IMG/VR virus record: IMGVR_UViG_3300028048_001497
Span: 1 to 64,000 of that record
Direction: 5' to 3' (one strand)
Length of the DNA: 64,000 bases
Origin: a virus
Taxonomy: Duplodnaviria; Caudoviricetes
Positions 5,131 through 45,322 of this stretch are shown piece after piece (the first letter of the stretch is position 1; the number at the start of each line of letters is the position of its first letter). The notes under the pieces are model-generated. The model was not told the origin of the DNA. It did no database searches and worked only from the letters and a program-made list of their open reading frames with translations. The translations under genes and the position numbers were made by a program.

Positions 5131-5162
5131 TTTTTGATATAAAAAAGGAAGTTGTGTAATAA

Positions 5163-5834: not shown

Positions 5835-5836
5835 AG

Positions 5837-12698: not shown

Positions 12699-12713
12699 AA
12701 AAAGGTGTGTCTA

Positions 12714-24147: not shown

Positions 24148-24642
24148 ATGAATAAAAGATTAATTAAAGCAGATAATTCCGAAGCTATTGAAAGCGTTGT
24201 TAAAGGCGTAGCAAAGGACGGTCGTAAAATTCTAAAAGACTTAGAAAATTTCAAATTTAAAATGGAACAATGTACAAATGTTTCTGCAAATAGTGATTTG
24301 CGTGATAAAATCCATCAACAATATGATATGGTTGATAAAGTTATGGATGGCTTGTTTAGTGTTTGCTATGATTTGGAAAACTTTAGTTTAGTTCCACAAT
24401 ACAATGTAGACCAGATTGATATGAGTAATCAAGACAATCCTGATTCTGATAATAACAATTATGATTTGAACGAAGAAATTCCTGCTGATACAACTCCTGA
24501 AGAAGAACCTGCGGAAGAAGAAACCACAGATGAAAATAAAAATGAAGAAGGTTCAGATGAAGGTGGATTAGATTTCGATTTAGATAACGAAGGCAATAAA
24601 GAGGAAAGCGGTTCGGAAGAAGAAAATAATTCCGAAGAATAA
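24148..24642 (+). CDS. Hypothetical protein, helical N-terminus and acidic tail (MNKRLIKA start)
   Basis: ORF track; KRL motif. Confidence 0.7.
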   Translation: MNKRLIKADNSEAIESVVKGVAKDGRKILKDLENFKFKMEQCTNVSANSDLRDKIHQQYDMVDKVMDGLFSVCYDLENFSLVPQYNVDQIDMSNQDNPDSDNNNYDLNEEIPADTTPEEEPAEEETTDENKNEEGSDEGGLDFDLDNEGNKEESGSEEENNSEE

Positions 24643-24652
24643 TTAACGAAAG

Positions 24653-25375
24653 GTGGTAAATTTTTTGAAACTAAAAATTGTAAAACCAAAACCAAAGTTT
24701 TATCGTATTAGTTATGCTATGTTAGACAATTTACTACAGAAAGAAAAACCATTAAAAAAGGAAACGATAGAGCCTAAAAAAACTGTTTTAAATAAATCTG
24801 TTAGTAAATTTGCAGATAAATATGATAAAATTGTTGATGAAGCTATACAGAAACATTTAATTGATGAATCTGATAGAGAAATGAAACTATTAGAATTGAA
24901 AAGTTTATCAGATGAAGAATTTGATAATTATGTTAATGAAGTGCATAATGAAGAAAGTATCAATGTAACAAATGTTGCAGAAGATAGTAAGCAAGAAGAA
25001 ACGGAACATTTAACTGAAGCAGAATTGGCATTGAAACGCATTAAACAATCTGGGCCTATTATTGGTGATTTTAGTCAAGATACTCCAACTACTATGAATG
25101 CAGGTAGTATTGGAGGTAGCAATTCTCGTTCGTTAAGTGATATTCAAGCAGATAGAAAATTAGATATGGCAGGATATAGTGAAGAAAAGTCTATGGATGA
25201 TATAATGTCTAATTTAAGTAATAGTTTCAATACAAAGAAAAAAACTGTTGCTAATAAGAAACCTATGTCAGATTTTAAAGGATTAACAAAGCCTATTGTG
25301 CATGAAAGTAAACAGTTTACTCAATCTATGAGTGATATATTTAGCAATTTAGATTGGACGATGGGGAGCAGGTAA
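24653..25375 (+). CDS. Putative scaffolding-like protein (likely start TTG 24665)
   Basis: Charged helical protein between the protease and the capsid genes, with a hydrophobic C-terminal tip (IFSNLDWT). Confidence 0.45.
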   Translation: MVNFLKLKIVKPKPKFYRISYAMLDNLLQKEKPLKKETIEPKKTVLNKSVSKFADKYDKIVDEAIQKHLIDESDREMKLLELKSLSDEEFDNYVNEVHNEESINVTNVAEDSKQEETEHLTEAELALKRIKQSGPIIGDFSQDTPTTMNAGSIGGSNSRSLSDIQADRKLDMAGYSEEKSMDDIMSNLSNSFNTKKKTVANKKPMSDFKGLTKPIVHESKQFTQSMSDIFSNLDWTMGSR

Positions 25376-25378
25376 ACA

Positions 25379-27058
25379 ATGCTAAAATATCTGGATAGTT
25401 ATCAAGGTTTAGATTCTTTAAAAAATATGAATTTTGATGATTTAAATGGATTAATAAAAGATATAAAAATTTTAATATTAAAACGATGTTCAACAATTGG
25501 CGGTCATTTGGCAACAAATATTGGTAATGTTGAAAGTGTTGTAGTTTTATATCGTCATTTTAATCCTAAGAATGGATATATTGTGTATGATACCGCTCAT
25601 GAAGGTTATACACATAAAATTTTAACAGATAGAAAAAATACTTTTTTAGATAAATTAAAAGTCGGAACGTTGGTAACGCCGAGAGAATCAAAATATGATT
25701 ATGTTGGTTGTTCGCATGGTGGAGTTGGAGCTTCATATTTATGTGGATTTGCCAAAGTAACAGACAAACCATGTGTATTATATGTTGGTGATGGTACATT
25801 AACAAATGGAACAGAATTAGAAGGATTAAACCAAATTGCTATGTTGAAAAGGAATGTTGTTATTGTGGTTAATGATAACGGAATAACAATTATGCCTAGT
25901 TCTGGTGGAATCTATAAACACTTAAATCAAGAATTTTTTAATTCTTTTGGCTTGGATTATATTGAAGTAAAAGATGGATATAATTTAAAAGAATTGGATG
26001 AAGCGTATGCTAAAGCGTTTTTTGCTAACCATCCAATTGTTGTACATATACATACTGTAAAAGGTAAAGGCTATATTTATTCAGAAAAAAATCCTACAAA
26101 ATGGCATTTTTGTGATGAAGGATTTAATGTATTAAATGGTGATAATCATTATGCTGAAGGAAAATTATTGGATGCATTAGACGATACTGTTTCTGATATA
26201 ATGAAACAAAATAAGAATGTGTATGCAATTTCTACTTCTATGCCAGATTTGGGATTTGGAAAAAAAGTACAGTCATTTAAAGATAGATATTTTGATGTTG
26301 GTATGGCAGAAGAACATGCATTTGTGGAGTCTTGTGGAATTTCTCTGGCAGGTAAGTACACTATATTAGGAACATATTCTACGTTTTTTCAAAGAATGTA
26401 TGATATGATAATGACTTGTGGAGCATTTGATAAAATAAATATGACTATTTTGTTACATGAAAGTGGAATAAAAGAAAATAACATATTTCAAAATGGAATG
26501 TATGATATTTCTATTATCAACCAGTCACCACAAATTGTAGAATTGTGTCCAATTACAATAAATGATATTGTATCAATGTTATCTTATACAGTATCCCATG
26601 ATGGTATTTACGTTATTCGTATTCCAAATGGAATTGAAGAAATAAACGATGAAAAAATATATTTTGATAAAAATAATTCTATGAAAATTCTTTCATCGGA
26701 TAATACAGATTTGGTTTTTATTGGGGTTGGAAAATCTATTTATGAGGCTAAAAAGTATTCTGAAAAATATAAATCAACATTGATTTGTAGTACATCAAAT
26801 CAATTAGATAAAGAAATATTGGATAAATTTAAAAATTCAGAATTAATTGTTGTATTTGAAGATGGAATTGTTAGCGGTGGATTTGGAGATAAAATTAATA
26901 GATATTTTTCTTTAGATGATGTTAAAGTTTTGCCTGTAGGAATATCAAATTATAATTATTTTGGCAATCCAAATGATAAGAATATAGAAGATATTTATAA
27001 AGAAAATGATATTGATTTTGACTCTATTTGTAAAAAAATTGATAGTGTGATAAAATGA
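25379..27058 (+). CDS. dxs: 1-deoxy-D-xylulose-5-phosphate synthase-like ThDP enzyme (divergent)
   Basis: GGHL, YTHKILTDR, GDG...NDN ThDP motif, HTVKGKGY, DVGMAEEHA, YSTFFQRMYD. Confidence 0.85.
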   Translation: MLKYLDSYQGLDSLKNMNFDDLNGLIKDIKILILKRCSTIGGHLATNIGNVESVVVLYRHFNPKNGYIVYDTAHEGYTHKILTDRKNTFLDKLKVGTLVTPRESKYDYVGCSHGGVGASYLCGFAKVTDKPCVLYVGDGTLTNGTELEGLNQIAMLKRNVVIVVNDNGITIMPSSGGIYKHLNQEFFNSFGLDYIEVKDGYNLKELDEAYAKAFFANHPIVVHIHTVKGKGYIYSEKNPTKWHFCDEGFNVLNGDNHYAEGKLLDALDDTVSDIMKQNKNVYAISTSMPDLGFGKKVQSFKDRYFDVGMAEEHAFVESCGISLAGKYTILGTYSTFFQRMYDMIMTCGAFDKINMTILLHESGIKENNIFQNGMYDISIINQSPQIVELCPITINDIVSMLSYTVSHDGIYVIRIPNGIEEINDEKIYFDKNNSMKILSSDNTDLVFIGVGKSIYEAKKYSEKYKSTLICSTSNQLDKEILDKFKNSELIVVFEDGIVSGGFGDKINRYFSLDDVKVLPVGISNYNYFGNPNDKNIEDIYKENDIDFDSICKKIDSVIK

Positions 27059-27837
27059 AAATTCCTAAAATGACTTTTTATATAAATTCTAATTGTAATT
27101 TAAATTGCAAAGGTTGTGCTCACTTTGCTCCATTAGCTAAACCTTGGAAAATAAAATTAAAAGATTTTAAAAATGAGGTAAATTTAATATATAATTTATG
27201 TGAACCTGAACAGATTTCAATATTAGGTGGAGAACCATTATTACATGATGAATTGGATGAGATATTGAAATATGCAAGAAAAATATTTACAAAGCAAAAA
27301 ATTTCATTTGTAACGAATGGTATTTTGTTGAATAAGTATTTTGATAAAGATTTGTTTAAATGTATTAAAGAAAATAATATTAATATCCGATTTTCTGTAT
27401 ATCCTATTGATGTAAATTATAATTTGATTTTTAAAAAATTAGATTTATTAAAAATTTCATATGATACAGAAAATGATTTTGTAAATAATAAAAATGAGCC
27501 GTGGTTTCATTATCATTATCACAAAAAAGATAATAAAGTAGCTGAGTATTGTTATATACGCGATGCTTTAGATAGTCCACAGGTTTATAATTATAAAGTT
27601 TTTGGATGTGCTACGACTGCATATATTTGTCATTTTAATCAATATTTTAATGAAAATTTTCCATTAGAAAAAGATGATTATTTGGATTTGAAAAATTGTT
27701 CTATTGAAAATTTTGATAGGTTTATTAATAACTTACATGAGAATGGAACATCTTTTTGTAAAAATTATTGTAGTTATGAGACTAATGATAAATGGAAATG
27801 GGGATTAACAGAAAGGAATAAAAAAGAATGGACATAA
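27055..27837 (+). CDS. Radical SAM protein
   Basis: CNLNCKGC, LGGEPLLH, VTNG; ATGA overlap with the dxs-like gene. Confidence 0.88.
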   Translation: MKIPKMTFYINSNCNLNCKGCAHFAPLAKPWKIKLKDFKNEVNLIYNLCEPEQISILGGEPLLHDELDEILKYARKIFTKQKISFVTNGILLNKYFDKDLFKCIKENNINIRFSVYPIDVNYNLIFKKLDLLKISYDTENDFVNNKNEPWFHYHYHKKDNKVAEYCYIRDALDSPQVYNYKVFGCATTAYICHFNQYFNENFPLEKDDYLDLKNCSIENFDRFINNLHENGTSFCKNYCSYETNDKWKWGLTERNKKEWT

Positions 27838-28799
27838 AATTTTCAATTATTATACCAACTCATAATAGACCAGATAAATTGAGAACGAATTTATTATCTA
27901 TAATTAATCAATCATATAAAAATTTTGAAGCTATTGTTGTTGATGATAATTCATCAGATGACAATAAGGTTAAAAACGAGCGAATCATAAACAATTTAAA
28001 TGATAATAGAATTAAATATTTTTATTTAAATAAAAATATTTTCGCTAGAAAAGTTAGAAATTATGGAATAGAACAGTCTAGTGGTAATTGGTTTCTTTAT
28101 TTAGATGATGATAATTTTTTGTTGGATAATGTTTTGGAAATTTTTGTTAAAAATATAAATACATTTAATAATGTTAAGGTATTTACAACAAAATATAAAT
28201 TTTATGAAAATGATGAGTGGTATGAAGAAGGAAATGACTTGTCTTTGTTAAAAAACCCGTTTAATTTATGGAATATTGATACGTGTTGTATTTTACATCA
28301 TTATGATTGCATTAAAAAATGTGGTACATGGAATGAAAATTATATTGTGTTAGATGATTTTGAATTTATAATTAGATATTATTTGGCATATCATAATAAT
28401 TATAAATTTATTAATTATATTTGTGTGCAAAAAGAGCCTGATACATATGTTAGTTCAAAAATATCAATAAACGATAAATTGAAATGTTTTGAGCGGTTTT
28501 ATTGCGATTATAATAAAAAATATGGATATGAATTAATGAAAATGTTAATTATAAGTGATGACCGTAATTGTTTGAATTATATATTGCCACATTTGTTTTC
28601 TTTTTTTTGTATTAGTATTCAAAATAAATTAAAAAAAGATGATTTAAAAAAATATGATGTTGTTTATCAATATAAAAATGGAACTTTGTTAAGTAATATT
28701 GATAATTTTTGTGAGGGACATAATAATATACCTTTGAGTTGTTCGTATAAGAATGATGATGAATGGATTTATGTTAAAAAAAATAAATTTGATTATTGA
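27828..28799 (+). CDS. Glycosyltransferase family 2
   Basis: FSIIIPTHNR, VVDDNSSD, RNYGI, YLDDDN (DxD motif), DDFEF. Confidence 0.9.
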   Translation: MDIKFSIIIPTHNRPDKLRTNLLSIINQSYKNFEAIVVDDNSSDDNKVKNERIINNLNDNRIKYFYLNKNIFARKVRNYGIEQSSGNWFLYLDDDNFLLDNVLEIFVKNINTFNNVKVFTTKYKFYENDEWYEEGNDLSLLKNPFNLWNIDTCCILHHYDCIKKCGTWNENYIVLDDFEFIIRYYLAYHNNYKFINYICVQKEPDTYVSSKISINDKLKCFERFYCDYNKKYGYELMKMLIISDDRNCLNYILPHLFSFFCISIQNKLKKDDLKKYDVVYQYKNGTLLSNIDNFCEGHNNIPLSCSYKNDDEWIYVKKNKFDY

Positions 28800-28816
28800 A
28801 AATAAGGAATAGATTT

Positions 28817-29929
28817 ATGATAAAAAAATTTACTAATGTTATAGAATGGGAATTATTAAAAAAAGATTTTTATAAAGAAATGAATAAATCATGTAGAAAA
28901 GATTTATTAATTAATAAAAAATCAGAACATAATGATATAATTTATTATTATATAGATAGTATAATTTGTACATTAAAAAAGTTTTTAAATGTAAAACATA
29001 TTATTTTAACAGAGAATGGTACACAGGCGTTAATGATTTCATTAAAAAGTTTAGGAATAGGTAATAGTGATGAAGTAATTACTACGCCATATTCTTTTAT
29101 CGCTTCAGCTAATGCGATTCGTTTAGTTGGAGCAACTCCTGTATTTGTGGATATAAAAAAAGATACATGGAATATAGATGAAAATAAAATAGAAGAAAAA
29201 ATTACTAACAAAACAAAAGCCATTTTGTCTGTTGATTGGTTTGGCAATCCATGTAATTATGATAAGATTTTAGAAATAGCAAAAAAATATAATTTAAAAG
29301 TAATTGATGATGCATGTCAAGCATTTACAGCTATATATCATGGGAAAAAAATAGGAAGTATAGCAGATATAACTTGTTTTTCATTTTCTAATGATAAAAG
29401 TTTTGGAAATTTCGGTAGAGGTGGTGCTATAGTAACTAATGATGATAATTTAGCCCCGATATTAAATGCTATGGCTGACCACGGAACAAATAATAATAAT
29501 GAATATGTTATGGTTGGAGATAATGGATTTTGGGAATATATGGAGTATATATATTTTTATGTGAAATTAAAATATTTATATAATAATTTATCATTTCGTA
29601 ATAATATTGCAAGAGTATATAAACAAATGAAAAATATTATATATCAAAAACAAGAATATAATTCTATTAGCTCATGGTGTAGATTCCAAGTTATGTTCTT
29701 AAATAAAAAATCAGAAGAAATAGCAAAACGTTTTTTTGAATTAGATTATTTGTATTTGAAAGATATACCTAATAATTCTTATTATAATTCATATAGAAAA
29801 GACACATTAATATCTAAAAATATATCAGAAAGATGTATAGGATTACCAATATATCCATTTATTGATTTTAATCTTGTTAAATCGTCTGTTGACAAATATA
29901 ATGAAGCAATAATAGAAGGAAAATTATGA
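28817..29929 (+). CDS. DegT/DnrJ/EryC1/StrS PLP aminotransferase, paralog 1
   Basis: NGTQAL, GATPVFVDI, DDACQA, CFSFSNDKSFG (PLP Lys). Start aligned to the MIKxF of the paralogs. Confidence 0.88.
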   Translation: MIKKFTNVIEWELLKKDFYKEMNKSCRKDLLINKKSEHNDIIYYYIDSIICTLKKFLNVKHIILTENGTQALMISLKSLGIGNSDEVITTPYSFIASANAIRLVGATPVFVDIKKDTWNIDENKIEEKITNKTKAILSVDWFGNPCNYDKILEIAKKYNLKVIDDACQAFTAIYHGKKIGSIADITCFSFSNDKSFGNFGRGGAIVTNDDNLAPILNAMADHGTNNNNEYVMVGDNGFWEYMEYIYFYVKLKYLYNNLSFRNNIARVYKQMKNIIYQKQEYNSISSWCRFQVMFLNKKSEEIAKRFFELDYLYLKDIPNNSYYNSYRKDTLISKNISERCIGLPIYPFIDFNLVKSSVDKYNEAIIEGKL

Positions 29930-31041
29930 TTAAAAATTTTACTACTACATTTGAATGGTTAAGATTACGAAAAGATTTTATGTCCAATATGGATAGAATA
30001 CAAAGAAAAATGGCGGTACAATTTAACACTTATGAATGTGATTTGGAACTGTCAAATTGTTATAATTCAATTATAAACGATATAAAAAAGTTTTTAGATA
30101 TAAAATATGCTTTTTTGGTTGTTTCAGGCACACAATCATTAATAGTTTCATTGAAAAGTTTAGGAATAGGTAATGATGATGAGGTAATTACAACAGTATA
30201 TACAGGAATACCTACAATTAATGCAATTCGTTTAGTTGGAGCAACACCTGTATTTGTTGATATAAAAGGAGATACATGGAATATAGATGAAAATAAAATA
30301 GAAGAAAAAATTACCAACAAGACAAAAGCTATTATGCCTGTTGATATTTTTGGCAATCCATGTAATTATGATAAGATTTTAGAAATAGCAAAAAAATATA
30401 ATATTCCGGTTATTGAAGATGCATGTCATGCATTTACAGCTATATATCATGGGAAACATACTTGTAATGTTGGATGTGATATAGCATGTACATCTTTTGG
30501 AAGTGAAAAAGCATTCGGTACTTTAGGTCAAGGTGGATTAATTTGTACTAATAATGAGATTTTAGCAAAGAAAATTGAAGCACTTTTAAATTATGGTTCA
30601 TTGGATGAAAAAGAAGATTGTATTTGCGCGGGATTAAATGGAAATTTCGACATTATGGGTATGGTATATTTATTTGTAAAAATGAAATTATTGAATTATA
30701 ATTTAGATTATAGGAACAAAGTCGTTTCTATTTATAAACAAATGAAAAATGTTATATGGCAAAAACAAGAACAAAATTCTATTAGTGCATGGTGTAAACC
30801 ACAAATAATTTTTAAAGATGAAAAATTTAAAAAAATCGCTTCCAATATTTTTGAATTAGATTATTTTTTTAGTAGAGATATATGCGATATAAAAATGTAT
30901 CATTCAGGAAGAAAATCTACTCCAATATCAAATCAAATTTCTCATAAAACAGTTTCTTTGCCAATATATTCATTTATGAACTTAGAAGAATTAGAAAATG
31001 CAGTAAAAATATATAATCAAAAGGTTAGTACATATGATTGA
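29926..31041 (+). CDS. DegT-family aminotransferase, paralog 2
   Basis: SGTQSL, GATPVFVDI, EDACHA, TSFGSEKAFG, SLPIY. Confidence 0.88.
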   Translation: MIKNFTTTFEWLRLRKDFMSNMDRIQRKMAVQFNTYECDLELSNCYNSIINDIKKFLDIKYAFLVVSGTQSLIVSLKSLGIGNDDEVITTVYTGIPTINAIRLVGATPVFVDIKGDTWNIDENKIEEKITNKTKAIMPVDIFGNPCNYDKILEIAKKYNIPVIEDACHAFTAIYHGKHTCNVGCDIACTSFGSEKAFGTLGQGGLICTNNEILAKKIEALLNYGSLDEKEDCICAGLNGNFDIMGMVYLFVKMKLLNYNLDYRNKVVSIYKQMKNVIWQKQEQNSISAWCKPQIIFKDEKFKKIASNIFELDYFFSRDICDIKMYHSGRKSTPISNQISHKTVSLPIYSFMNLEELENAVKIYNQKVSTYD

Positions 31042-31678
31042 GAATAATATTGATTGGAATAAAATTAAAACTATATTTAATGATTGCATAAATAAAATTA
31101 TGCGTATGGAAATGTTAATTAACAAAAAAACATTATTTAGAGATGACTTTGAACATAAATTGATGGAATATATAAAAAAAATATGTAATATAAAATATAT
31201 TGTTGTTTCTAAAAGTAAACATCAAGCATTATATACCATATTAAAATGTTTTAACATAAATGAAAACGAGATAAAAAAAATAAAAATTATAGATTCGATA
31301 AAATATTGTGAAAATGAATCTATAATTTTATTAGATAATATTTCTATTAACTTGTCAACATATAAAGAATTAAAACATAAAGCACAAAATTTAATAGTTG
31401 TAAGTGTTCTAAATAATTTTTCTTTAGAGACCTTAAAAAATAATAAAAATTTTGATATTTCCCTCATGCCTTTTGGATTTAATAACAAAAGTTGTTTAAT
31501 TTTTTTAAAAGATGAAAAATATTATAATGTTATTGATAGTTTTTTAAATCACGGTTCAGATGGAAAAGATAATTGTGTAAGAATTGGAACGAATGGATAT
31601 ATTGATTTTTTTGAAATAATTTATTTATATTCTGTTTTAAAATATATGAATAATAATTTATCTATAAAGGAAATATGA
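31034..31678 (+). CDS. Truncated/degenerate DegT paralog 3
   Basis: Shares HGSDGKDNCVRIGTNG with paralog 5 and the N-terminal pattern, but lacks the central and C-terminal parts and the PLP-Lys motif. Confidence 0.7.
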   Translation: MIENNIDWNKIKTIFNDCINKIMRMEMLINKKTLFRDDFEHKLMEYIKKICNIKYIVVSKSKHQALYTILKCFNINENEIKKIKIIDSIKYCENESIILLDNISINLSTYKELKHKAQNLIVVSVLNNFSLETLKNNKNFDISLMPFGFNNKSCLIFLKDEKYYNVIDSFLNHGSDGKDNCVRIGTNGYIDFFEIIYLYSVLKYMNNNLSIKEI

Positions 31679-32733
31679 TGATTAAAAATTTTACTAGTAC
31701 TATTGATTGGCTAAAACATAAAGATTTATTTTTTAAAAATTTTGAAAGTTTTAATAAAAACAAAGCAATGATATTTGATTATCAAAATAAAATTGAAGAA
31801 ATATTGTCAAAACATACAAATACAAAATATTGTATATTAACATCTTGCGGAACGAAATCGTTAGTATTAGCTTTAAAATGTATTGGAGTAAAAAAAAATG
31901 ATGAAGTCATTACTACTCCATTAACTTTTATTGCCACGGTTAATGCAATCCGTTTAGTTGGAGCAACCCCTGTATTTGTTGATATAAAAAAAGATACATG
32001 GAATATAGATGAAAATAAAATAGAAGAAAAAATTACTAACAAAACAAAAGCTATTATGCCTGTTGATATTTTTGGTAATCCATGTAATTATGATAAAATT
32101 TTAGAAATTGCTAAAAAGCATAATTTAAAAATTGTCAATGATTGTTGTCAATCGTTTTTGTCTAAATATAATGATATTCCAATTGGTAGTTTTGGAGATA
32201 TATCGTGTTTTTCAGTTGGGGGGACGAAACCATTTTGTAGTATTAGTGAGGGTGGATTTCTTGTTACTAATAATAAAGAGTATATTAATAAAATTAAAAG
32301 TTTCTCAAATATAAATGATGCTTTTGATATAAATGTAATATATGAGAATATGAGTATTTTTGAAATTGTTTATTTATATTCAAAAATAAATGAAATAGAT
32401 AATATATTACAATGGAAAAATAATATTGCAAATATTTACAAAAAAATGAAAAATGTTGTGTGGCAAGAACAAGAACCTAATTCAACTAGTGTATGGTGTT
32501 ACATGCAAGGTTTATTTACTGATAAACGAAATGTTGAAATAGCAAAAAAATATTTCCAATTATCAACTTTATATCAAAAAACTATTTGCGACAATACATT
32601 ATACAAAAATTATCAAGATGATGTTCCTATTGCAGAATATATATCTCACAATTCTTTTGGATTACCAATATATCCATATATTAATGAAAAAATATTACAA
32701 GATGCGGTGAATAAATATAATAATGAGGTGTAA
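31675..32733 (+). CDS. DegT-family aminotransferase, paralog 4
   Basis: CGTKSL, GATPVFVDI, NDCCQS, CFSVGGTKPF..SEGG, GLPIYP. Confidence 0.88.
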   Translation: MMIKNFTSTIDWLKHKDLFFKNFESFNKNKAMIFDYQNKIEEILSKHTNTKYCILTSCGTKSLVLALKCIGVKKNDEVITTPLTFIATVNAIRLVGATPVFVDIKKDTWNIDENKIEEKITNKTKAIMPVDIFGNPCNYDKILEIAKKHNLKIVNDCCQSFLSKYNDIPIGSFGDISCFSVGGTKPFCSISEGGFLVTNNKEYINKIKSFSNINDAFDINVIYENMSIFEIVYLYSKINEIDNILQWKNNIANIYKKMKNVVWQEQEPNSTSVWCYMQGLFTDKRNVEIAKKYFQLSTLYQKTICDNTLYKNYQDDVPIAEYISHNSFGLPIYPYINEKILQDAVNKYNNEV

Positions 32734-32761
32734 TAGTATAGTATAATGAAAGGATAAAAAT

Positions 32762-33832
32762 ATGATTAAATATTTTTCTAATGAATTTGATTGGTTAATG
32801 ACAAAACGCGAAGCATCTAAAATTATAGACGAGCAAAGTAAAACTAGAGATTTTCTTTGGGGGAAATCACTTAATTCTTTTATAAAAAAATTGAGCAATT
32901 TTATTGGAGTAAAATATGTTGTTCTTTCAAAATCCGGCACACAAACATTAGCAGTTGCATTAAAGTGCTATGGTATTGGTGAAGGTGATAAAGTAATTAC
33001 AACTCCTTTAACATTTATTGCTACGGTTAATGCAATTCGTTTAGTAGGAGCAGAACCAGTTTTTGTAGATGTAAAAAACGATACATGGAATATAGATGAA
33101 AATAAAATAGAAGAAAAAATAGACGATACTGTAAAAGCTATTATGCCTGTTGATATTTTTGGTAATCCATGTAATTATGAAAAGATTAATGGAATAGCTA
33201 AAAAATACAATATTCCTGTAATTGATGATATGTGTCAAGCGATGACATCAATGTATCATAATAAAAAACTTGGTAATATTTGTGATGTATCGTGTACTTC
33301 TTTTTATCCAACGAAGCCATTTGGAGGATTTGGTGAAGGTGGGGCTTTATTTACAAATGATGAAAAAGTTTATGAATTAGCAAAATCTATTTTAGACCAC
33401 GGTTCTGATGGTAATGATAATTGTACTAGAGTTGGAACAAATGGTGGTTTTGATATGCTTCATGGAGTATTTTTGGATGTAAAAGCAAAATATCTGCCAA
33501 CCATTTTAGAAAAACGTAATACAATTGCAAATATTTACAAACAAATGAAAAATGTTACTTGGCAACAACAAGAACCAAATGCTATTAGTTCTTGGGCTAG
33601 GATGCAGGGAATTGTAACAGATGAAAAATCTAAAGAAATAATAAATAAATTATTTGAAACGGACGATTTGTATTCTAAAGACATTTGTGATAATACTTTG
33701 TATAAACAATATCGTAAAGACACACCAAATTCAGAATATATTACTCATAATTCAATTAGTTTCCCGATTTATACATATATGAATATAAAAGAATTGCAAA
33801 ACGCAGTAAATGAGTATAATTCATTGGTCTAA
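32762..33832 (+). CDS. DegT-family aminotransferase, paralog 5 (most canonical)
   Basis: SGTQTL, TSFYPTKPFGGFGEGGALFTND. Confidence 0.92.
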   Translation: MIKYFSNEFDWLMTKREASKIIDEQSKTRDFLWGKSLNSFIKKLSNFIGVKYVVLSKSGTQTLAVALKCYGIGEGDKVITTPLTFIATVNAIRLVGAEPVFVDVKNDTWNIDENKIEEKIDDTVKAIMPVDIFGNPCNYEKINGIAKKYNIPVIDDMCQAMTSMYHNKKLGNICDVSCTSFYPTKPFGGFGEGGALFTNDEKVYELAKSILDHGSDGNDNCTRVGTNGGFDMLHGVFLDVKAKYLPTILEKRNTIANIYKQMKNVTWQQQEPNAISSWARMQGIVTDEKSKEIINKLFETDDLYSKDICDNTLYKQYRKDTPNSEYITHNSISFPIYTYMNIKELQNAVNEYNSLV

Positions 33833-33874: not shown

Positions 33875-33985
33875 ATGATGAAATTGAATATAGTTCTTAA
33901 TAAGATTCGTGAAAAAGAATTGCAAAATAGATATGCTTTTGGTTTTGGTGATTTAAAAAATAAAGTAAAAAAACATTTTCCATAA
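33875..33985 (+). CDS. Possible 36-aa basic peptide
   Basis: Read manually: MMKLNIVLNKIREKELQNRYAFGFGDLKNKVKKHFP, after AAGGA. Confidence 0.35.
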   Translation: MMKLNIVLNKIREKELQNRYAFGFGDLKNKVKKHFP

Positions 33986-34318
33986 AAACAAAATTGAACA
34001 AATTTAACAAATAATAATAAAATTAGGATATATTTAATGGATAGTAATAACTATCCATTTTTTGTATAAATATTATTTATGAATTTTAAAATGGGGTTAT
34101 ATTTATTGAAAAAATGTATATTTTTTTAATGTAAAAGTAAAAAACAGATTGTGTTTGTAGAACAAAACATTTTTTCATAAATTGATTTATCTTGAATAAA
34201 TCGTACTCGCAAATATGTATGGTTTGCAAAAAACGCTATTATCCCGTTTTGTTTGCGAACACGCTCTTGTAATAATAACATTTAAATTTGATAAAATTAT
34301 TTCGGAGGTGTTTATTCG

Positions 34319-34837
34319 ATGGCAACAAATAATGCAGGTGGACATTTTGTTTTTGGTCCTACATTTAACTCTACGCAGTATGTGCGTGCAGCTATCGAAG
34401 GTGCTATCAATGGTTTCTATGACATTGATGCAGAAAAAGCAGAAGCTCTTGACGGAAAGTTAGCAGGTCATTTTGCTGCTATTTCCTCTGATGGTAAAGT
34501 TGTACCAGCAGGTGCAAAGGGCGCAGGTGCAGTTGGTCTTATTCGTGAAGATTTGAAGGATATGATTAACGCTAGTGGTAAGGCTTCATTCTACATGCTC
34601 GGCATGGGTGGCGAATATCACGTTGCAGAGTCCCGTCTCGGCAAGGAAATTAGTGCTTTTACAGTTGGTAAGGAAATTACAACTGATGCAAATGGTGCTA
34701 TCGTTCCTGCTACTGATGGTGATAAGGTTCTCGGTACTGTTGTTTCTATCGGTGAGTTCCGTCAGGGCAACATGTATGAATGGGCTGGCGAAGCCGCTAA
34801 TGGTGGCAAGTTCCTCGGCTTTATTATGCACGTTTAA
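34319..34837 (+). CDS. Capsid decoration/minor capsid protein
   Basis: GGAGGTG SD; highly-expressed codon bias; beta-rich Gly/Ala protein directly before the MCP. Confidence 0.7.
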   Translation: MATNNAGGHFVFGPTFNSTQYVRAAIEGAINGFYDIDAEKAEALDGKLAGHFAAISSDGKVVPAGAKGAGAVGLIREDLKDMINASGKASFYMLGMGGEYHVAESRLGKEISAFTVGKEITTDANGAIVPATDGDKVLGTVVSIGEFRQGNMYEWAGEAANGGKFLGFIMHV

Positions 34838-34854
34838 TTGGAGGTTGATTAGTT

Positions 34855-35700
34855 ATGTCTATGACACAAGAAGAAAAAGAATATTTAATCTCCAATGCTC
34901 TTGAAACAAGCGAAGGACGCGCAGCTCTTGCTAGTGCTATGGCTAACCCAATTCGTACTTCCCTTGATTATCAGGGTATTGGACGTAAGTTACTCGTTGT
35001 TGACCCACTACCACAGGGCGCACTTCCTGTTTACGACCGCGATGTTGATGCAAAGGCATTTGTCGTTTCTAAACGTGGACAGGCTCCAGACCAGCTCGTT
35101 GAGGGTGAACGTATCCAGGTTCCAACTTTTGAAGTTGTAGCTTATCCACAGGTTCGTTTCTCTCAGATTAAGGAACGTCGTTTCAATATTATTGACCGTG
35201 CTCAGCAACGTGCTAAGTCAGATATTATGGCAGTAGAAGATGAAACTTGCTTCTCACTTCTCGATGCTGCTGCAACATCTGTAAACCCAGAAACAATTTC
35301 TGCTGGTGGTCTTACTCGTGATGCTCTTGCTACTGCTTTCCGTGAAGTCGAAAAGCATGACCTCGCAGCTACGAAGATTGTTATGAACGCACAGGCTTTT
35401 GCTGATATTCGTAAGTGGGGACAGAATGAATTTGACCCAGTAACACAACACGAAGTTCTTCAGACAGGTACATTTGGACATCTTTGGACTGCTGAAATTC
35501 TCATTTCAAAGAAAGTCCCACTCAATACAGTTTATGTACTTGCTGACCCAGAGTTTGTTGGTGTTATGCCAATTCGTCAGGATATCCAAGTTATTCCAGC
35601 AGATATTCCTGAAAGACTTCGCATTGGTTGGGTTGTTTACGAAGAAATTGGTATGTCCGTTGTCAACGGTATGTCCGTTGCTAAGATTACAATTAAGTAA
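34855..35700 (+). CDS. Major capsid protein (HK97 fold, Bxz1-like)
   Basis: PIRTSLDYQGIGRKLLVVDPLPQGALPVYD, EGERIQVPTFEVVAYPQV, MAVEDETCFSLLDAAA; GGAGG SD, optimal codons, terminator after. Confidence 0.9.
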   Translation: MSMTQEEKEYLISNALETSEGRAALASAMANPIRTSLDYQGIGRKLLVVDPLPQGALPVYDRDVDAKAFVVSKRGQAPDQLVEGERIQVPTFEVVAYPQVRFSQIKERRFNIIDRAQQRAKSDIMAVEDETCFSLLDAAATSVNPETISAGGLTRDALATAFREVEKHDLAATKIVMNAQAFADIRKWGQNEFDPVTQHEVLQTGTFGHLWTAEILISKKVPLNTVYVLADPEFVGVMPIRQDIQVIPADIPERLRIGWVVYEEIGMSVVNGMSVAKITIK

Positions 35701-35722: not shown

Positions 35723-35752
35723 AAAAGAGATACAATATGTATCTCTTTTTTT
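35723..35752 (+). terminator. Intrinsic terminator after MCP
   Basis: AAAAGAGATACA/TGTATCTCTTTT. Confidence 0.85.
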
Positions 35753-35774
35753 GTTTGTTGTTGGGAGCAAAATA

Positions 35775-36638
35775 ATGTTTTTAGAACAATTCGTCATAAT
35801 TACATGGAATGGCAAAAATAAACAGTATTATATGTCAAAAGGATATAAATTTACAAAAATGTTTGATAAATTTAGATGTAATATTAATGATTTAATTAAA
35901 GGTAGTCGTGCAATTGTAAAATTGAAATGTGATAATTGTGGGAAAGATTTTGAAAAACCATATGGAAATTTGAGAGATAAAACGAAGCATTATTGTAAAG
36001 AATGTAGAATAACAATGATTAAACATACTATTAAAGAAAAATATAATGTCTCATGTGTATCAAAATTAAAGAATGTTCAAGATAAAATAAAGAAAACGAA
36101 TTTAGAAAAATATGGTTGCAAACACCCTATGCAAAATAAAGATGTGTTAAAGAAACAACAAATGACAAATAAAAAACGTTATGGATATATAACTCCATTG
36201 TTAAATACGCAAGTTAATCCACATACTTATCAAAAATTTTCATATATGCAGAAACATATTTGTGAATTAGTTTATGGAATATTAAATTATTATGAGCATG
36301 GATTTTATATTGATGTGGCTTTAGTAAAAGAACATATTGCCATTGAATATGATGGTGGTGGGCATAATTTATCAGTTAAATTGGGTTTTATAACAGAAGA
36401 AGAATTTAAGAAAAAAGAAATACAACGCAGTATAATACTTCAAAGAAATGGATGGAAAATAATACGTATTATTAATACATATGATAAATTGTTGTTGGAT
36501 AAAGATATTCTAGCATATATCAATATATCAAAAAAATATTTATTAACCACAATTCATCATTGGATTTATATAAATTTTGATAATCAACAAATCATAACAA
36601 GTGTTTTTAGAAAGGATTTTAAAGAATATGGAGTATAA
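35775..36638 (+). CDS. Putative homing endonuclease (zinc ribbon + KYG repeats + DUF559/Vsr-like nuclease)
   Basis: CDNCG...CKEC, TNLEKYG repeats, YIDVA...IAIEYDGGGH, GWKIIRI. Confidence 0.75.
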   Translation: MFLEQFVIITWNGKNKQYYMSKGYKFTKMFDKFRCNINDLIKGSRAIVKLKCDNCGKDFEKPYGNLRDKTKHYCKECRITMIKHTIKEKYNVSCVSKLKNVQDKIKKTNLEKYGCKHPMQNKDVLKKQQMTNKKRYGYITPLLNTQVNPHTYQKFSYMQKHICELVYGILNYYEHGFYIDVALVKEHIAIEYDGGGHNLSVKLGFITEEEFKKKEIQRSIILQRNGWKIIRIINTYDKLLLDKDILAYINISKKYLLTTIHHWIYINFDNQQIITSVFRKDFKEYGV

Positions 36639-39403: not shown

Positions 39404-39600
39404 GTCAACTACTCCCACTTAACGCCTACGGCGTTTGAAGTGGGAGCTTGAACCTACCCTGTAACAGCAAAAACTGTCCTAAGAGGTTGTAACGGCAAAG
39501 CCTTCCTCAAGAGTGGTTCTACTCAACACGAAAAATCCGTGTTCGGACGGTTGACAACGCCCGCATGACAGCGACGCAATGCGTACTATCTGTTAGCTAA
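39404..39600 (-). ncRNA. Predicted TnpB omegaRNA/reRNA scaffold
   Basis: Structured GC-rich sequence between the tnpB stop and the element right end, where TnpB guide RNAs are encoded. Confidence 0.6.
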
Positions 39601-40952: not shown

Positions 40953-41450
40953 ATGTTAAAACAAATTCCAAATACAAACAATATATATTATGCAGATGCA
41001 GATGGTAACATTTATAATTATAAAAAAGAAAAGAAAAAATGCCATTCAGATAAAGATGGATATTTGATTACTTCCATTGATGGGAAAAGCAAAAAAGTAC
41101 ATCGTTTAATTTTGGAAACTTTTATTATAAATAAAAACAATTATCCAATGGTAAATCATATTAATGGAATAAAAAACGATAATCGGCTTTGTAATTTAGA
41201 ATGGGTATCTGCTTCGCAAAATGTATACAAAGCGCATCATGAAACAAAAACTAGAGTTGCAGGTGTTAATACAGGGATGAAAGCTATTCCTGTGATTTGT
41301 ATTGAAATTTTAACAAATGCCATGTATAATTATAATAGTATTTCAGAAGCAAGTAGAGCCTTGAAAATACCTGAATATATGATAAGTCGTTGTGTAAATG
41401 GAAAACGTAAATCAGCGAAAGGTTTTATGTTTAAAAAAAAGGAGAATTAA
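40953..41450 (+). CDS. HNH homing endonuclease (HNH_3 + NUMOD1)
   Basis: VHRLI, VNHINGIKNDNRLCNLEWVS..N, YNSISEASRAL. Confidence 0.88.
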   Translation: MLKQIPNTNNIYYADADGNIYNYKKEKKKCHSDKDGYLITSIDGKSKKVHRLILETFIINKNNYPMVNHINGIKNDNRLCNLEWVSASQNVYKAHHETKTRVAGVNTGMKAIPVICIEILTNAMYNYNSISEASRALKIPEYMISRCVNGKRKSAKGFMFKKKEN

Positions 41451-42028: not shown

Positions 42029-43200
42029 AAATTTTTACAGACGATATGAAAATTGATGATGAAGAATGGAAAGATATTGATAAAACATACAAAATTAGTA
42101 ATTTTGGGAGAGTAATATTTTTCCGAAATAAAAAATGGTATTTATCTAGCATAAAGGATAATCAAGTGTCTATTCATGCAAAACAAATACAAGTATGTGC
42201 TTTGGTATTAAAAATATTTAAAAACATTGAATTGACAAACAAAGAATATATCAAACACTTAGATGGAAATGAAGAAAATAATTATATAGAAAATTTAATT
42301 GTTGATACAAAATCTAATAAATACAAACAGTTTGCAAAAGAAGGTAAATTCGATAATTTTATTCATTCTACAATAAAGAATGACATATTAGTAGAATGCT
42401 ATGAATATATAGATGAAAACAATGTCAAATGGAAATCTATTTATGGATATGAAGGATTATATGAAATAGGAACAAATGGGCATATTAAATATTTAACAAA
42501 AGATGGTAAAAAACATGATATGTCTATTAATGATAATGGTAGAAAAGGATATTTAATTGTTCAACTAAGAAAAAATGGAAAACGTTCGAGCAAACTTGTG
42601 CATCGTTTAGTTATGGAAAATTTTAAACCGCTTGAAAATATGAATGATTTGCAAGTAAATCATATTGATGGAAATAACAAAAATAATGATATTTCTAATT
42701 TAGAATGGGTAACGGCAAAAGAGAATATGAAACATGCAAATGATAATGGATTGGTTAATAATCAATCTGTGTTTTTTAAATATAATGGAAAAAAATATTT
42801 TCATATTCACGAGATAATGAAAGAATATGATTTATCCGTTCAAGAAGCGCAAAACGTTGTAGAACGAGTCCCAATTCGTGAAGCTACGTATGTAAAACGA
42901 TGGAAAGAAAAAAATGGCTTGCCAAATGAAAAATGGGAAATCGTAGAAGGATATAATTGTGAAATATCTAATTATGGAAGATGTTTAACATATATTGATA
43001 ATCATCGTTTTCAATGCACTTTAAAACAGATTAGAAAAAATAAATACTATAATTTAACAGATATGTATGGACATCGTAAAGATTATATGATTGCAAAATT
43101 GGTACTTCATGCATTTACTGATTATAATAATGAAAAGATTCAATATAAAGATGGTAATTGTTTAAATTTTAAATTAGAGGATTTAATATGGAAAAAATGA
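42025..43200 (+). CDS. HNH endonuclease with three tandem NUMOD4-HNH units
   Basis: Repeated W..I..Y.ISN.GR motif; central intact VHRLV...VNHIDGNNKNNDISNLEW; the flanking copies are degenerate. Confidence 0.82.
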   Translation: MKIFTDDMKIDDEEWKDIDKTYKISNFGRVIFFRNKKWYLSSIKDNQVSIHAKQIQVCALVLKIFKNIELTNKEYIKHLDGNEENNYIENLIVDTKSNKYKQFAKEGKFDNFIHSTIKNDILVECYEYIDENNVKWKSIYGYEGLYEIGTNGHIKYLTKDGKKHDMSINDNGRKGYLIVQLRKNGKRSSKLVHRLVMENFKPLENMNDLQVNHIDGNNKNNDISNLEWVTAKENMKHANDNGLVNNQSVFFKYNGKKYFHIHEIMKEYDLSVQEAQNVVERVPIREATYVKRWKEKNGLPNEKWEIVEGYNCEISNYGRCLTYIDNHRFQCTLKQIRKNKYYNLTDMYGHRKDYMIAKLVLHAFTDYNNEKIQYKDGNCLNFKLEDLIWKK

Positions 43201-43892
43201 TATATAAAAAATTTAATTTAGATTTTATAGAAGTAAAGGATAAGTATAATTGTTGTTTTACAGAAAAAGATTTTAAAACAGAAAAATATGACTTTTTATT
43301 TATTAAGAATCAAAAAATGTGTGACACATTTATGTTAAAATATAATTTTATTTGTAAATTTAAAAATGGATTGCTAATTTCAAACAAATATGCGATTTAT
43401 AATGAATCTGTATATGACATTGTAAGATTAAATGAAAATGATGGTCATAAGTATGCAAAAATATATTTAAAACAATGTGGATTGGTCATAAGGTTTTATG
43501 ATAAGCAAACAAGAAATACTATATTAAACAATTATATTAATATTCCAAAAGGCAATAGAGTACCAATTATTAAGTTTACAGAATATTTTTGTATAACAAA
43601 ATATATACATAAAGGTTTTTTGGATAATTTTAGTATAATAAAATTTTTATTTGTTATGTATCTTTTATTGTATAAGAATAAATTGATTTTTGATTTGCAA
43701 CAAGATAATATTATAATTGATAAAAAATTAAACATTTATGTTGTTGATATGGAAGCTAAAAATATTTTTACAAAAAATGAATTAATGCGCTTTTATATCA
43801 TGTCTTATTTTTTTTATTGGTTAAATGTAATAGATAATAGAATGGATAAAGAGTTTTTTGATAAATTATATCAATATGATTTAAAACATTAA
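43188..43892 (+). CDS. Hypothetical, possible kinase-fold protein
   Basis: YAKIY, DLQQDNII (catalytic-loop-like DxxxxN) and VVDME (DFG-like). Confidence 0.45.
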   Translation: MEKMIYKKFNLDFIEVKDKYNCCFTEKDFKTEKYDFLFIKNQKMCDTFMLKYNFICKFKNGLLISNKYAIYNESVYDIVRLNENDGHKYAKIYLKQCGLVIRFYDKQTRNTILNNYINIPKGNRVPIIKFTEYFCITKYIHKGFLDNFSIIKFLFVMYLLLYKNKLIFDLQQDNIIIDKKLNIYVVDMEAKNIFTKNELMRFYIMSYFFYWLNVIDNRMDKEFFDKLYQYDLKH

Positions 43893-44017: not shown

Positions 44018-45322
44018 ATGAATTATAATATATGCATTGTTGGATTAGGATATGTTGGAATCCAATTAGCTTGTGAATTTGTTAAAAAAGTTCCTGTATA
44101 TGGATATGATACAAATATAAAAAAAGTGGATAATTATGAAAACGGATATGATGTAACGCAATCGGTAGATACAGAATTGCTATCAGAAATTAATTTCGTT
44201 ACAGATGAAAATCAATTTACATTAGATAAAAACAAACCTAATGTATGGATTGTTTGTGTTCCGACACCTATAGATGATAAACATATTCCTGATATTAGTA
44301 TGTTAAAATCTGCGACAAAAATGGTTGCTAAATATTTAGCAGTTGGAGATACTGTTATTTTTGAATCAACGGTAGCACCAAAAACGACTAGAAATGTTTG
44401 TATTCCTATTTTGGAAACGAATAGTAATTTAGTTTGTGATGAAGATTTTTATGTTGGCTTTTCTCCTGAAAGATTACAACCAGGTAAAGGAGGTAAAACT
44501 ATTAGACAAATTACAAAATTGGTTTCAGGTTCATCAGATAAAGCATTAGAAAAAGTTTATGATATATATCATTTAATTCTTCCAAAGAATAAGATATATA
44601 AATGCAGTTCATTAGAAGTGGCAGAAACATCAAAGATAATGGAAAATGTTAAACGTGATGTGAATATTGCTTTAATGAATGAATTTCAGATGATTTGTTC
44701 TATGAGTGGAATTAATTTTGACGATGTATTAAATTCTGCAAGAACAAAATTTAATTTTAATAATGCTTCATATAATCCTGGTATGGTTGGTGGGCATTGT
44801 ATTGGTGTAGACCCATATTATTTCATTGATTTTGAAAATAAGTATAATAAAGATTGGTATGGTTTAGTAGATTCTGCTAGAGCAATTAATGAAACTGTTC
44901 CATTTTTCTTAGCAAATCAGATTTTAGATGAAATAAATAAAAAACATCCACGTATCACAATATTGGGATTTTCTTTTAAGGAAAATTGTAATGATATTCG
45001 TAATACAAAAATTTATGATTTATATAAATATTTAACTGATGCAGGAGCAGAAGTTTATATTGTAGATAATAAATGTGATAAACAATTAGTTAAAGAACAG
45101 TATGGAATAGATTTATTGGATGAAATTCTTATTGGGAATGATTGTATTTTTATCGCATTGAAAGAACCAGATTTAATTCCACAAGATATAGAAAGTAAAT
45201 TGTTTGATGATGGATTTATTTTTGACTATAAGGGGTTATTTAAAGATTATTTAGATGATATAACAAATAACAATTTAATGGATAAAAACAAAATTCCATT
45301 TGATAGAGTTGTTACATTATAA
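44018..45322 (+). CDS. Nucleotide-sugar dehydrogenase (UDP-glucose/GDP-mannose/UDP-GlcNAc 6-dehydrogenase family)
   Basis: GLGYVG, VCVPTP, FESTVAP, FSPER, KIMEN, GGHCIGVDPYY, LGFSFKENCNDIRN. Confidence 0.93.
   Translation: MNYNICIVGLGYVGIQLACEFVKKVPVYGYDTNIKKVDNYENGYDVTQSVDTELLSEINFVTDENQFTLDKNKPNVWIVCVPTPIDDKHIPDISMLKSATKMVAKYLAVGDTVIFESTVAPKTTRNVCIPILETNSNLVCDEDFYVGFSPERLQPGKGGKTIRQITKLVSGSSDKALEKVYDIYHLILPKNKIYKCSSLEVAETSKIMENVKRDVNIALMNEFQMICSMSGINFDDVLNSARTKFNFNNASYNPGMVGGHCIGVDPYYFIDFENKYNKDWYGLVDSARAINETVPFFLANQILDEINKKHPRITILGFSFKENCNDIRNTKIYDLYKYLTDAGAEVYIVDNKCDKQLVKEQYGIDLLDEILIGNDCIFIALKEPDLIPQDIESKLFDDGFIFDYKGLFKDYLDDITNNNLMDKNKIPFDRVVTL

Follow-up and report, generated by a model that had tools for sequence, protein, structure and literature searches.

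Background

Phage-encoded glycosylation of virion proteins has, to our knowledge, been proven only for a few mycobacteriophages, and the glycosylating mycobacteriophages that we know of carry glycosyltransferases only and use host sugars. Phage glycosylation genes beside capsid genes are already known. The mycobacteriophage systems are the subject of Freeman et al. 2023 (Cell Host Microbe; cited in PMC12801897 and PMC11256854), and giant viruses, whose fibrils are glycosylated, encode their own amino-sugar enzymes (PMC9614988, PMC10117803). In this work, we analyse a sugar-modification cassette of eight open reading frames (ORFs) at positions 25379-33832 of a 64-kb stretch of viral DNA, referred to below as the window, which is the first 64 kb of the 174.5-kb IMG/VR virus record IMGVR_UViG_3300028048_001497 (CheckV completeness ~35%). 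The cassette encodes a thiamine diphosphate (ThDP)-dependent enzyme resembling DXS, a radical SAM enzyme, a GT2 glycosyltransferase and an array of DegT aminotransferases. We give an even chance to the reading in which the cassette is a functional amino-sugar pathway, expressed late, whose products are attached to virion proteins (decoration, capsid or fibres) directly in the cytoplasm.

The locus resembles the mycobacteriophage and giant-virus systems in having glycosyltransferase genes beside capsid genes: one GT2 gene lies inside the head block, and GT8, GT4 and GT2 genes follow a fibre-like gene. Unlike the mycobacteriophages, this megaphage has a multi-enzyme sugar-building set with radical SAM and ThDP chemistry. 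With the WbpA/WbpB/WbpE (Wlb) route to UDP-2,3-diamino-uronic acid it has in common WbpE-like DegT enzymes and a nucleotide-sugar 6-dehydrogenase that is probably of the UDP-N-acetylhexosamine (UDP-HexNAc) type. It differs from that route in lacking a WbpB-type Gfo/Idh/MocA 3-dehydrogenase, for which the radical SAM enzyme would have to substitute, and in adding four DegT paralogues and a ThDP enzyme. In butirosin biosynthesis, BtrS, a member of the DegT family, aminates the ketone product of BtrN. BtrN itself converts an aminocyclitol alcohol to a ketone (PMC10337720). None of the papers searched was found to describe a phage-G-like megaphage that combines an amplified array of DegT genes with a twitch radical SAM enzyme, a carboligase derived from DXS and a dehydrogenase for uronic-acid formation.

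By sequence comparison, the window is a fragment of such a megaphage, because its major capsid protein (MCP) shares 80% identity with the gp27 protein of Bacillus phage G and its portal, protease and decoration proteins match gp14, gp19 and gp26, respectively. The G+C content of the genome is 29% (0.294). Below, G000 denotes the genome of the window and G001-G005 its relatives, of which G003 is complete (504 kb) and G004 and G005 are fragments.

Enzymes of the cassette

All eight ORFs lie on one strand, and their junctions (-4, -10, -4, -4, -8, -4 and +28 nt) are ATGA-type overlaps or short gaps. Matches to Pfam exceed the curated cut-offs for the DXS-like ThDP enzyme, the radical SAM enzyme, the GT2 and four DegT proteins (Table 1). 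The preliminary description of the window had listed the same translationally coupled set with five DegT genes; the coupling and the identities stand, but the DegT count has to be corrected to four intact genes and one remnant.

The DXS-like protein has the three-domain architecture of canonical DXS and, when aligned to E. coli Dxs, retains His49, the GDG...NDN ThDP/Mg motif, N181, His299, Glu370, Tyr392 and Arg398. In contrast to canonical DXS, it carries the substitutions R420E, D427N, H431Q and R478N, and these four positions are non-canonical in 8/8 aligned sequences of the phage clade. Arg420 and Arg478 bind D-glyceraldehyde 3-phosphate (GAP), and Asp427 and His431 belong to the active-site network (bioRxiv 10.1101/2025.03.03.641193). 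The protein also scores below all three NCBIfam DXS equivalog cut-offs (354.9 against 510, 304.3 against 395 and 257.1 against 466 bits). On these residues and scores the enzyme is not a canonical DXS; since the GAP-binding arginines are replaced and the DXS cut-offs are missed, it is probably a ThDP carboligase with an acceptor other than GAP. A true DXS supplying an isoprenoid carrier lipid was rejected as unlikely, because the GAP-binding residues are gone. Its closest relatives (91, 79, 56, 54, 47 and 37% identity) make up a clade that occurs solely on metagenomic contigs, which reach 500 kb, and cellular DXS, including that of Firmicutes, comes next (31-33%). The protein matched no PHROG family, and a tblastn search against phages returned only short or probably bacterial records.

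The radical SAM protein belongs to an unnamed, mostly viral family, whose members have 250-270 residues. Across 37 members of the family, the cysteines of the CX3CX2C motif (C14, C18 and C21) never vary. C185, C235 and C239 are likewise invariant within the family; a fourth cysteine stands at one column in 27 of the 37, from which C166 of the window protein lies two residues off. The structural model superimposes on SpeY (7wzv) with a VIA Z of 21.6 and a root-mean-square deviation of 2.6 A over 234 of 260 residues (Foldseek E 1e-12), on BtrN with a Z of 15.1, and on other radical SAM structures with a Z of at most 14.8, mostly about 13. With SpeY (spectinomycin) and BtrN (butirosin), the cassette enzyme has in common the fold, the size and the CX3CX2C motif; it also has C-terminal cysteines that may hold an auxiliary cluster, and its gene adjoins DegT aminotransferase and glycosyltransferase genes, in keeping with the same oxidise-then-transaminate logic. 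Unlike them, it is phage-encoded in a head operon, belongs to an uncharacterised family and is only 14-18% identical to them; its substrate is probably a nucleotide sugar or glycoside, whereas theirs is an aminocyclitol. The model points to a likely dehydrogenase that converts a sugar C-OH to a ketone, with an epimerase as a possible alternative. Viperin-, MoaA- and QueE-like enzymes were considered and rejected, since their matches span the N-terminal cluster region alone and their fold scores are far below that of SpeY.

At alignment column 233 of the family, where the window protein has S174, 27 of the 37 members have cysteine and the rest serine. According to the title of the paper on HygY, a single cysteine decides between epimerase and dehydrogenase. 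The split at column 233 may thus mark two activities within the twitch family, and the serine in place of the extra cysteine in the window copy is suggestive only as to oxidation versus epimerisation. A scan of IMG/VR with the radical SAM protein found nothing. The bacterial and metagenome-assembled homologues of the family (loci L038-L117) come almost all from gut and termite anaerobes, including Gastranaerophilales, Treponema, Muribaculaceae, Lachnospiraceae and Synergistaceae; on the same strand, the neighbours that could be identified are most often GT2 genes and additional radical SAM genes, and some of these loci may be prophages.

The GT2 protein is predicted to be a soluble GT-A enzyme. 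Its D39/D40 and DDD motifs are conserved, and the DxD residues D93 and D95 are invariant. Several folds tie as the closest (Z 21-24), namely WrtF, SpsA, heparosan synthase, TarS/TarP and RmlT, which are glycan- or polymer-elongating enzymes; the C-terminal 90 residues are poorly modelled and give no clue to the acceptor. We rejected a GtrB/ArnC-like glycosyltransferase acting on a lipid carrier, since inspection by eye revealed no transmembrane segment in the protein and no hydrophobic stretch of membrane length in these 90 residues; the ArnC model scores 19.4 against a cut-off of 529 bits. Scans of IMG/VR with the GT2 and with its 83% identical relative found nothing, and a scan of JGI metagenomes with the GT2 gave a single irrelevant 1.4-kb match. 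Relatives of the DXS-like, radical SAM and GT2 proteins at 88-99% identity occur on many contigs, those at 88-91% on contigs from ENA and Logan. Contigs of 177, 129 and 223 kb carry relatives at 83-91% identity. More distant DXS-like and GT2 homologues lie on a contig of 300 kb (56%) and on one of 500,645 bp, which has both a DXS-like (37%) and a GT2 (28%) homologue.

The four intact DegT proteins, products of tandem paralogues, score 231-257 bits against a cut-off of 19.8 bits, and each of them keeps the D..Q motif as well as the lysine of SFxxxK. The ORF of DegT1 opens at TTG 28796; ATG 28817, which agrees with the paralogues, is probably the start. In the 214-aa ORF between DegT2 and DegT3 the frame is open, and the segments with the D..Q motif and the SFxxxK catalytic lysine are deleted; because of these deletions we regard it as a dead remnant, presumably non-catalytic. 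The nearest solved structures of DegT1-4 form a common group (7b0d, WbpE and QdtB), mostly of C3-aminotransferases.

Phylogenetic analysis unites all six phage DegT proteins in a single clade (96/100), in which DegT4 groups with its orthologues from G001 and G002 (100/99 and 89/96) and DegT1-3 fall outside this orthologue group, their own branching being without resolution. Within 28987-33305, the DegT paralogues share a 300-nt core with 74-83% DNA identity, in which the amino acids are nearly identical. Among DegT1-3, the synonymous divergence (dS) drops from 0.79-0.96 in the flanks to 0.33-0.53 in the core. This pattern suggests that gene conversion homogenised the core, while the N- and C-terminal substrate regions diversified.

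Boundaries and base composition

The first cassette gene begins 3 nt past the stop codon of a 240-aa gene, as the preliminary description had it, though the label "scaffold-like" given there to that gene is at best tentative: the protein has neither a family match nor a phage G homologue. The gene is kept ahead of a DegT or DXS-like gene in the loci L002, L007, L008 and L009. The acidic 164-aa protein resembling gp20 is probably the better candidate for the scaffold. At the other end, the order described earlier (cassette, decoration, MCP) holds; the cassette does not abut the decoration gene, however, since a spacer of 486 nt with a 23-codon gene remnant and a terminator-like hairpin intervenes. 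The decoration and MCP genes both have GGAGG ribosome-binding sites, and a further terminator-like hairpin (35723-35749) follows the MCP gene. As the cassette is coupled upstream, is closed off downstream by the spacer with its hairpin, and is followed by genes with their own signals, it appears to prolong the portal-protease-scaffold unit at its 3' end and to be separate from the capsid-shell unit.

The cassette had been described as mostly more AT-rich than the flanking head genes, and its G+C content is indeed 0.18-0.29, compared with 0.29-0.33 in the upstream head genes and 0.43-0.45 in the decoration and MCP genes. At third codon positions the G+C content is 0.12-0.16 against 0.15-0.21 in the flanks, so that the deficit falls on the first and second positions. 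In the same genome, a second glycan cluster is equally AT-rich. AT-richness thus stems from amino-acid composition and not from foreign codon usage, and there is no sign of recent import; an AT-rich "foreign island" was rejected, because the third positions resemble those of the flanks. A megablast search of the cassette against GenBank phages gave no match.

In the decoration and MCP genes (34319-35700), dS relative to G001 is only 0.25, compared with 0.6-0.8 in neighbouring genes. The high G+C content and low dS of the pair may reflect the strong codon bias of the most expressed genes or a recent exchange of the pair.

Table 1. Features of the cassette, its surroundings and the associated glycan genes (window positions unless stated otherwise)
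Feature	Position	Strand	Evidence
Acidic-tailed 164-aa protein, weak phage G gp20 homologue; probable scaffold	24148..24642	+	27% identity; acidic C-terminal tail
240-aa head-module protein	24653..25375	+	No Pfam or PHROG match; dN/dS 0.27-0.34
DXS-derived ThDP-dependent enzyme, 559 aa	25379..27058	+	Pfam DXP_synthase_N 7.7e-44
SpeY/BtrN-like twitch radical SAM enzyme, 260 aa	27055..27837	+	CNLNCKGC motif; model pLDDT (predicted local distance difference test) 86
Soluble GT-A (GT2) glycosyltransferase, 323 aa	27828..28799	+	Pfam Glycos_transf_2 3.8e-25, 89.2 bits
DegT1 aminotransferase	28817..29929	+	Pfam DegT 3.9e-73; catalytic Lys; best solved relatives 7b0d, WbpE, QdtB
DegT2 aminotransferase	29926..31041	+	Pfam DegT 1.8e-68; catalytic Lys
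DegT remnant, 214 aa, G+C 0.18	31034..31678	+	No Pfam or NCBIfam match; 27% to paralogues, internal deletions
DegT3 aminotransferase	31675..32733	+	Pfam DegT 2e-68; catalytic Lys
DegT4 aminotransferase, conserved member	32762..33832	+	Pfam DegT 2.9e-76
23-codon remnant of a gene that is intact (249 aa) after DegT in G001	33884..33952	+	tblastn 83% identity over 23 aa
Terminator-like hairpin and T-run, ending the portal-to-cassette unit	34036..34059	+	Pattern scan, consensus match only
Capsid decoration protein, candidate acceptor	34319..34837	+	49% identity to gp26; GGAGG ribosome-binding site; G+C 0.45
MCP, candidate acceptor	34855..35700	+	gp27, 80% identity; phrog_2522 1.5e-100
234-aa protein adjoining dehydrogenase	43188..43892	+	Two tandem copies at equivalent G001 site; no family match; weak APH-kinase lead
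Nucleotide-sugar 6-dehydrogenase, probably UDP-HexNAc type	44018..45322	+	Three UDPG_MGDP_dh Pfam domains; TIGR03026 303.9 vs 189.8 bits
Second glycan cluster, ~7 kb	G000 72128-79093 (outside the window; L027:8128-15093)		Directly after fibre-like gene

Dehydrogenase and second glycan cluster

About 10 kb downstream of the cassette lies a nucleotide-sugar dehydrogenase gene, whose product, a candidate for the TviB/WbpA type, is the probable entry enzyme of the pathway. Its best equivalog is TviB, a UDP-GlcNAc 6-dehydrogenase (266 against a cut-off of 592 bits). Orthologues follow just after the MCP gene in G001 (78% identity) and G002 (52%), at a distance of 0.5-1.5 kb (474 nt in G002); none was found in the complete G003 or in the fragments G004 and G005.

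The second cluster encodes GT8, GT4, a 303-aa protein of no assigned function, a carbamoyltransferase of the NodU/CmcH type, two SpeY-like twitch radical SAM enzymes and GT2, and it is retained in G001 and G002, where extra paralogues of the 303-aa protein are present. Between the cassette and this cluster, the radical SAM pair is 38% and the GT2 pair 35% identical (the second GT2 gene being at 78158-79093). The GT4 of the cluster scores against the protein O-glycosyltransferases SdgA/SdgB.

Comparison with related loci

The preliminary description had proposed comparing relatives for presence or absence of the cassette between scaffold and MCP. Across twelve related loci, we found DegT (G001, G002) or a DXS-like gene (L002, 81% identity, same position as in the window) at the site, with variable content. 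In G001, an intact DegT4 orthologue (85% identity) is followed by a 249-aa gene. Directly before this DegT lies a fossil (L007:6610-7285), made up of 103 aa from the N-terminus of a radical SAM protein and, overlapping them in a different frame, 147 aa from the C-terminus of a short-chain dehydrogenase/reductase (SDR) of the NDP-sugar 4,6-dehydratase/decarboxylase type (UXS/ArnA-type); it looks like a deletion that joined two sugar genes. G002, whose MCP is 95% identical, has a lone DegT at the site, 52% identical to DegT4. The site is without DegT in six more distant relatives and in phage G, which has an endolysin at this place. Since the dehydrogenase trails MCP in G001 and G002, the conserved module in the relatives, as judged from gene order, is DegT, decoration, MCP and dehydrogenase, and the window is the most expanded version found.

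G000, G001 and G002 each encode a full-length twitch radical SAM enzyme, DegT, the dehydrogenase and GT2. The complete 504-kb G003 yielded none of the four, and phage G has neither a member of this twitch family nor a DXS-like gene or DegT match. No intact SDR was found in G000, G001 or G002, where the G001 fragment is the only trace, and no Gfo/Idh/MocA oxidoreductase (PF01408) was found in G000 (~35% complete), G001 or G002, the control being positive in 14/14 genomes. Because both families are absent, the radical SAM enzymes are, of the oxidoreductase families searched, the only phage-encoded candidate oxidants. The search for an NTP-transferase covered G000 alone and found none.

Selection was estimated as the ratio of non-synonymous to synonymous divergence (dN/dS). 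Comparison of the window with L002 gives 0.15 for the DXS-like gene, and comparison with G001 gives 0.14 for DegT4. For reference, the portal and protease genes give 0.07-0.11, and the 240-aa gene falls higher (Table 1). The DXS-like gene and DegT4 are thus under purifying selection, and the value near 1 that the preliminary description had named as the mark of decay is not seen in these two measured genes.

In two relatives the MCP gene matches in separate pieces, with five in L017:9401-12392 and two in L016:776-2899, the latter with an HNH-like match between them. The split matches suggest introns, inteins or endonuclease insertions.

Proposed pathway and target

That the cassette encodes an amino-sugar pathway that looks functional, as proposed in the preliminary description, agrees with the kept catalytic motifs, the low dN/dS of the DXS-like and DegT4 genes, and the coupling with the portal-protease-scaffold genes. 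In the pathway that we propose, the dehydrogenase would convert host UDP-HexNAc to a uronic acid. A twitch radical SAM enzyme would turn a ring hydroxyl into a ketone without nicotinamide adenine dinucleotide (NAD) or oxygen, replacing WbpB or a 4,6-dehydratase; a phage-encoded origin of the ketone step is assumed here as the simplest. The WbpE/QdtB-like DegT enzymes would convert ketones to amines, with the paralogues acting on different positions or intermediates, and the ThDP enzyme would couple a unit derived from a 2-oxoacid to another carbonyl acceptor, giving a further ketone for amination. The soluble GT2 would transfer the sugar, alongside the GT8, GT4, GT2, carbamoyltransferase and two twitch enzymes of the fibre-adjacent cluster, so that soluble glycosyltransferases would build the glycan in the cytoplasm on a late-made acceptor.

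We infer from gene position that this acceptor is a set of virion proteins. The genes appear coupled to structural operons, and DegT and dehydrogenase bracket decoration and MCP in three diverged genomes. The second cluster, which adjoins fibre genes, its GT4, which resembles SdgA/SdgB, and the mycobacteriophage and giant-virus precedents also favour a virion target.

Several observations weigh against glycosylation of the virion by this route. The MCP of G001 is 99.6% identical even though that genome has neither the GT2 nor the DXS-like gene and its cassette radical SAM gene is not intact; given so similar a capsid protein in a genome without most of the cassette, cassette content does not co-vary with the capsid protein. 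A search for a Ser/Thr-rich acceptor tract found none in real coding frames, its best matches being antisense artefacts or one tail-like protein, and was uninformative. Judged from its fold, the GT2 would equally fit TarP, TarS and RmlT, which glycosylate wall teichoic acid. Related twitch enzymes can be epimerases, to go by the title of Besandre et al. 2021 (in PMC10991966). In bacteria, a DegT gene lies no more than 8 kb from the radical SAM gene at just 4 of 80 loci of the family, and the commonest identifiable neighbour of its members is GT2 (11/88 neighbours); because DegT is so rarely near, the link between radical SAM and DegT is not general and may be peculiar to these phages. Finally, no nucleotidyltransferase or N-acetyltransferase was found, with ~35% of the genome in hand and no search aimed at WbpD/WbpI.

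A more specific chemistry may be sketched, although we consider it rather improbable. It is an undescribed rare-sugar route of anaerobic-gut megaphages, independent of NAD and oxygen, in which the twitch radical SAM enzyme and the ThDP carboligase would each make a ketone on a UDP-uronic sugar or a growing glycan, each ketone being served by a dedicated DegT. The result would be a multiply aminated, C-branched and carbamoylated coat on capsid or fibres, or a product ligated via its amines to 5-carboxymethylcytosine in phage DNA.

Alternative explanations

The best-surviving alternative places the product on the host. The prophage protein TarP modifies wall teichoic acid, and the cassette and the fibre-adjacent cluster could likewise act during infection on a polymer of the host cell wall, be it teichoic acid, capsule or S-layer glycan, either to block superinfection or to keep progeny from sticking to debris. 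The GT2 fold, which ties with TarP, TarS and RmlT at Z 21-22, is consistent with this, as are the NCBIfam matches, which include TuaG and other cell-wall glycosyltransferases, and the bacterial radical SAM relatives, which adjoin GT2, GT4, GT8 and polysaccharide genes. Moreover, cassette content differs between near-identical capsids, as it would for a trait that tracks the host. However, every glycosyltransferase is soluble; a flippase, a polyprenyl-phosphate glycosyltransferase, a polymerase and a ligase were not found among the ORFs scanned; and the coupling is to late structural operons rather than to early genes. On balance, we regard remodelling of the host envelope as unlikely, though clearly the first of the alternatives to bear in mind.

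Less probable still is an unattached small molecule, namely an aminoglycoside- or aminocyclitol-like or polyamino product that acts as an antibiotic-like effector or as a polycation packaged with the large genome. A BtrN/SpeY-type twitch dehydrogenase, DegT, GT4 and a carbamoyltransferase of the NodU/CmcH family make up an aminoglycoside-type set, and BtrR/BtrS relatives are among the PDB matches of DegT. TobZ is a member of the same carbamoyltransferase family. In a cyanophage, a comparable pair of DegT and radical SAM genes carries the annotation "antibiotic synthesis genes" (PMC12801897), which also counts in favour of such a molecule. The four glycosyltransferases and the nucleotide-sugar dehydrogenase point instead to glycan assembly from NDP-sugars, and no cyclitol-forming enzyme was noticed, with no search aimed at DOIS or inositol-phosphate synthase.

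Hypermodification of phage DNA, in which the product would be attached as a glycosyl group or as an amine, for example through an amide link to 5-carboxymethylcytosine, seems to us quite improbable. That an amine can be ligated to this base through an amide is proven (PMC12783734), and both GT2s give weak matches, below threshold, to a TET-associated glycosyltransferase family and to the PHROG of the T4-type hydroxymethylcytosine glucosyltransferase. Yet hydroxymethylases of the ThyA family are absent from G000, G001 and G002, which makes DNA glycosylation less likely; a CmoY-type ligase is not on record for this genome; the genes stand in structural operons and not among replication genes, and the closest glycosyltransferase folds are glycan-elongating enzymes. 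No Tet/JBP match was found either, in a search whose control matched nowhere and which is thus uninformative.

The idea that mobile or accessory genes accumulate as passing cargo between scaffold and decoration, with most of the cassette being lost, can draw on the variable site (an endolysin in phage G, nothing in most relatives, the fused radical SAM/SDR fossil in G001), on the dead DegT copy and on the 23-codon remnant after DegT4, but it is very improbable and already largely refuted for the DXS-like gene and DegT4, given that 7 of the 8 ORFs retain catalytic residues and overlapping start and stop codons, that dN/dS is 0.14-0.15 where measurable, and that close relatives (88-99%) of the DXS-like, radical SAM and GT2 proteins are found on many contigs.

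Other genes of the window

Mobile elements lie between the MCP and dehydrogenase genes of the window: an HNH homing endonuclease (35751-36638), an endonuclease resembling phage G gp28 (36601-37617), TnpB (39593-40810, minus strand) and two HNH/NUMOD genes (40953-41450 and 42025-43200). A PAPS-reductase-like/ParB_N pair (37656-39341 and 41453-42028) is likewise inserted there, and the window has a second TnpB copy at 1388-2623 (minus strand). Early in the window, a row of genes at 3904-6502 encodes an M16-family peptidase, a sigma-70 region-4 protein and an N6/N4 DNA methylase. A further radical SAM gene (12705-13778, 357 aa), with a weak match to the twitch-domain subfamily NF033640, sits upstream of a 794-aa ORF (17119-19503) and the portal gene.

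Conclusion

On the reading in which the cassette serves glycosylation of the virion, a giant gut phage devotes more than 8 kb in its head operon and a second cluster of ~7 kb to making its own amino sugars. It does so with kinds of enzyme known from aminoglycoside biosynthesis (twitch radical SAM, DegT and carbamoyltransferase) together with a re-purposed DXS. The relatives offer a natural series of gain and loss, from a lone DegT through a fossilised form to the eight-gene form. If the proposed chemistry is true, it would provide a radical SAM substitute for the WbpB or 4,6-dehydratase step, a new ThDP carboligase and four diverged aminotransferases, which can be expressed and assayed. If the particle is the target, the pathway would bear on the protease resistance, mucus adhesion and immune evasion of gut megaphages.

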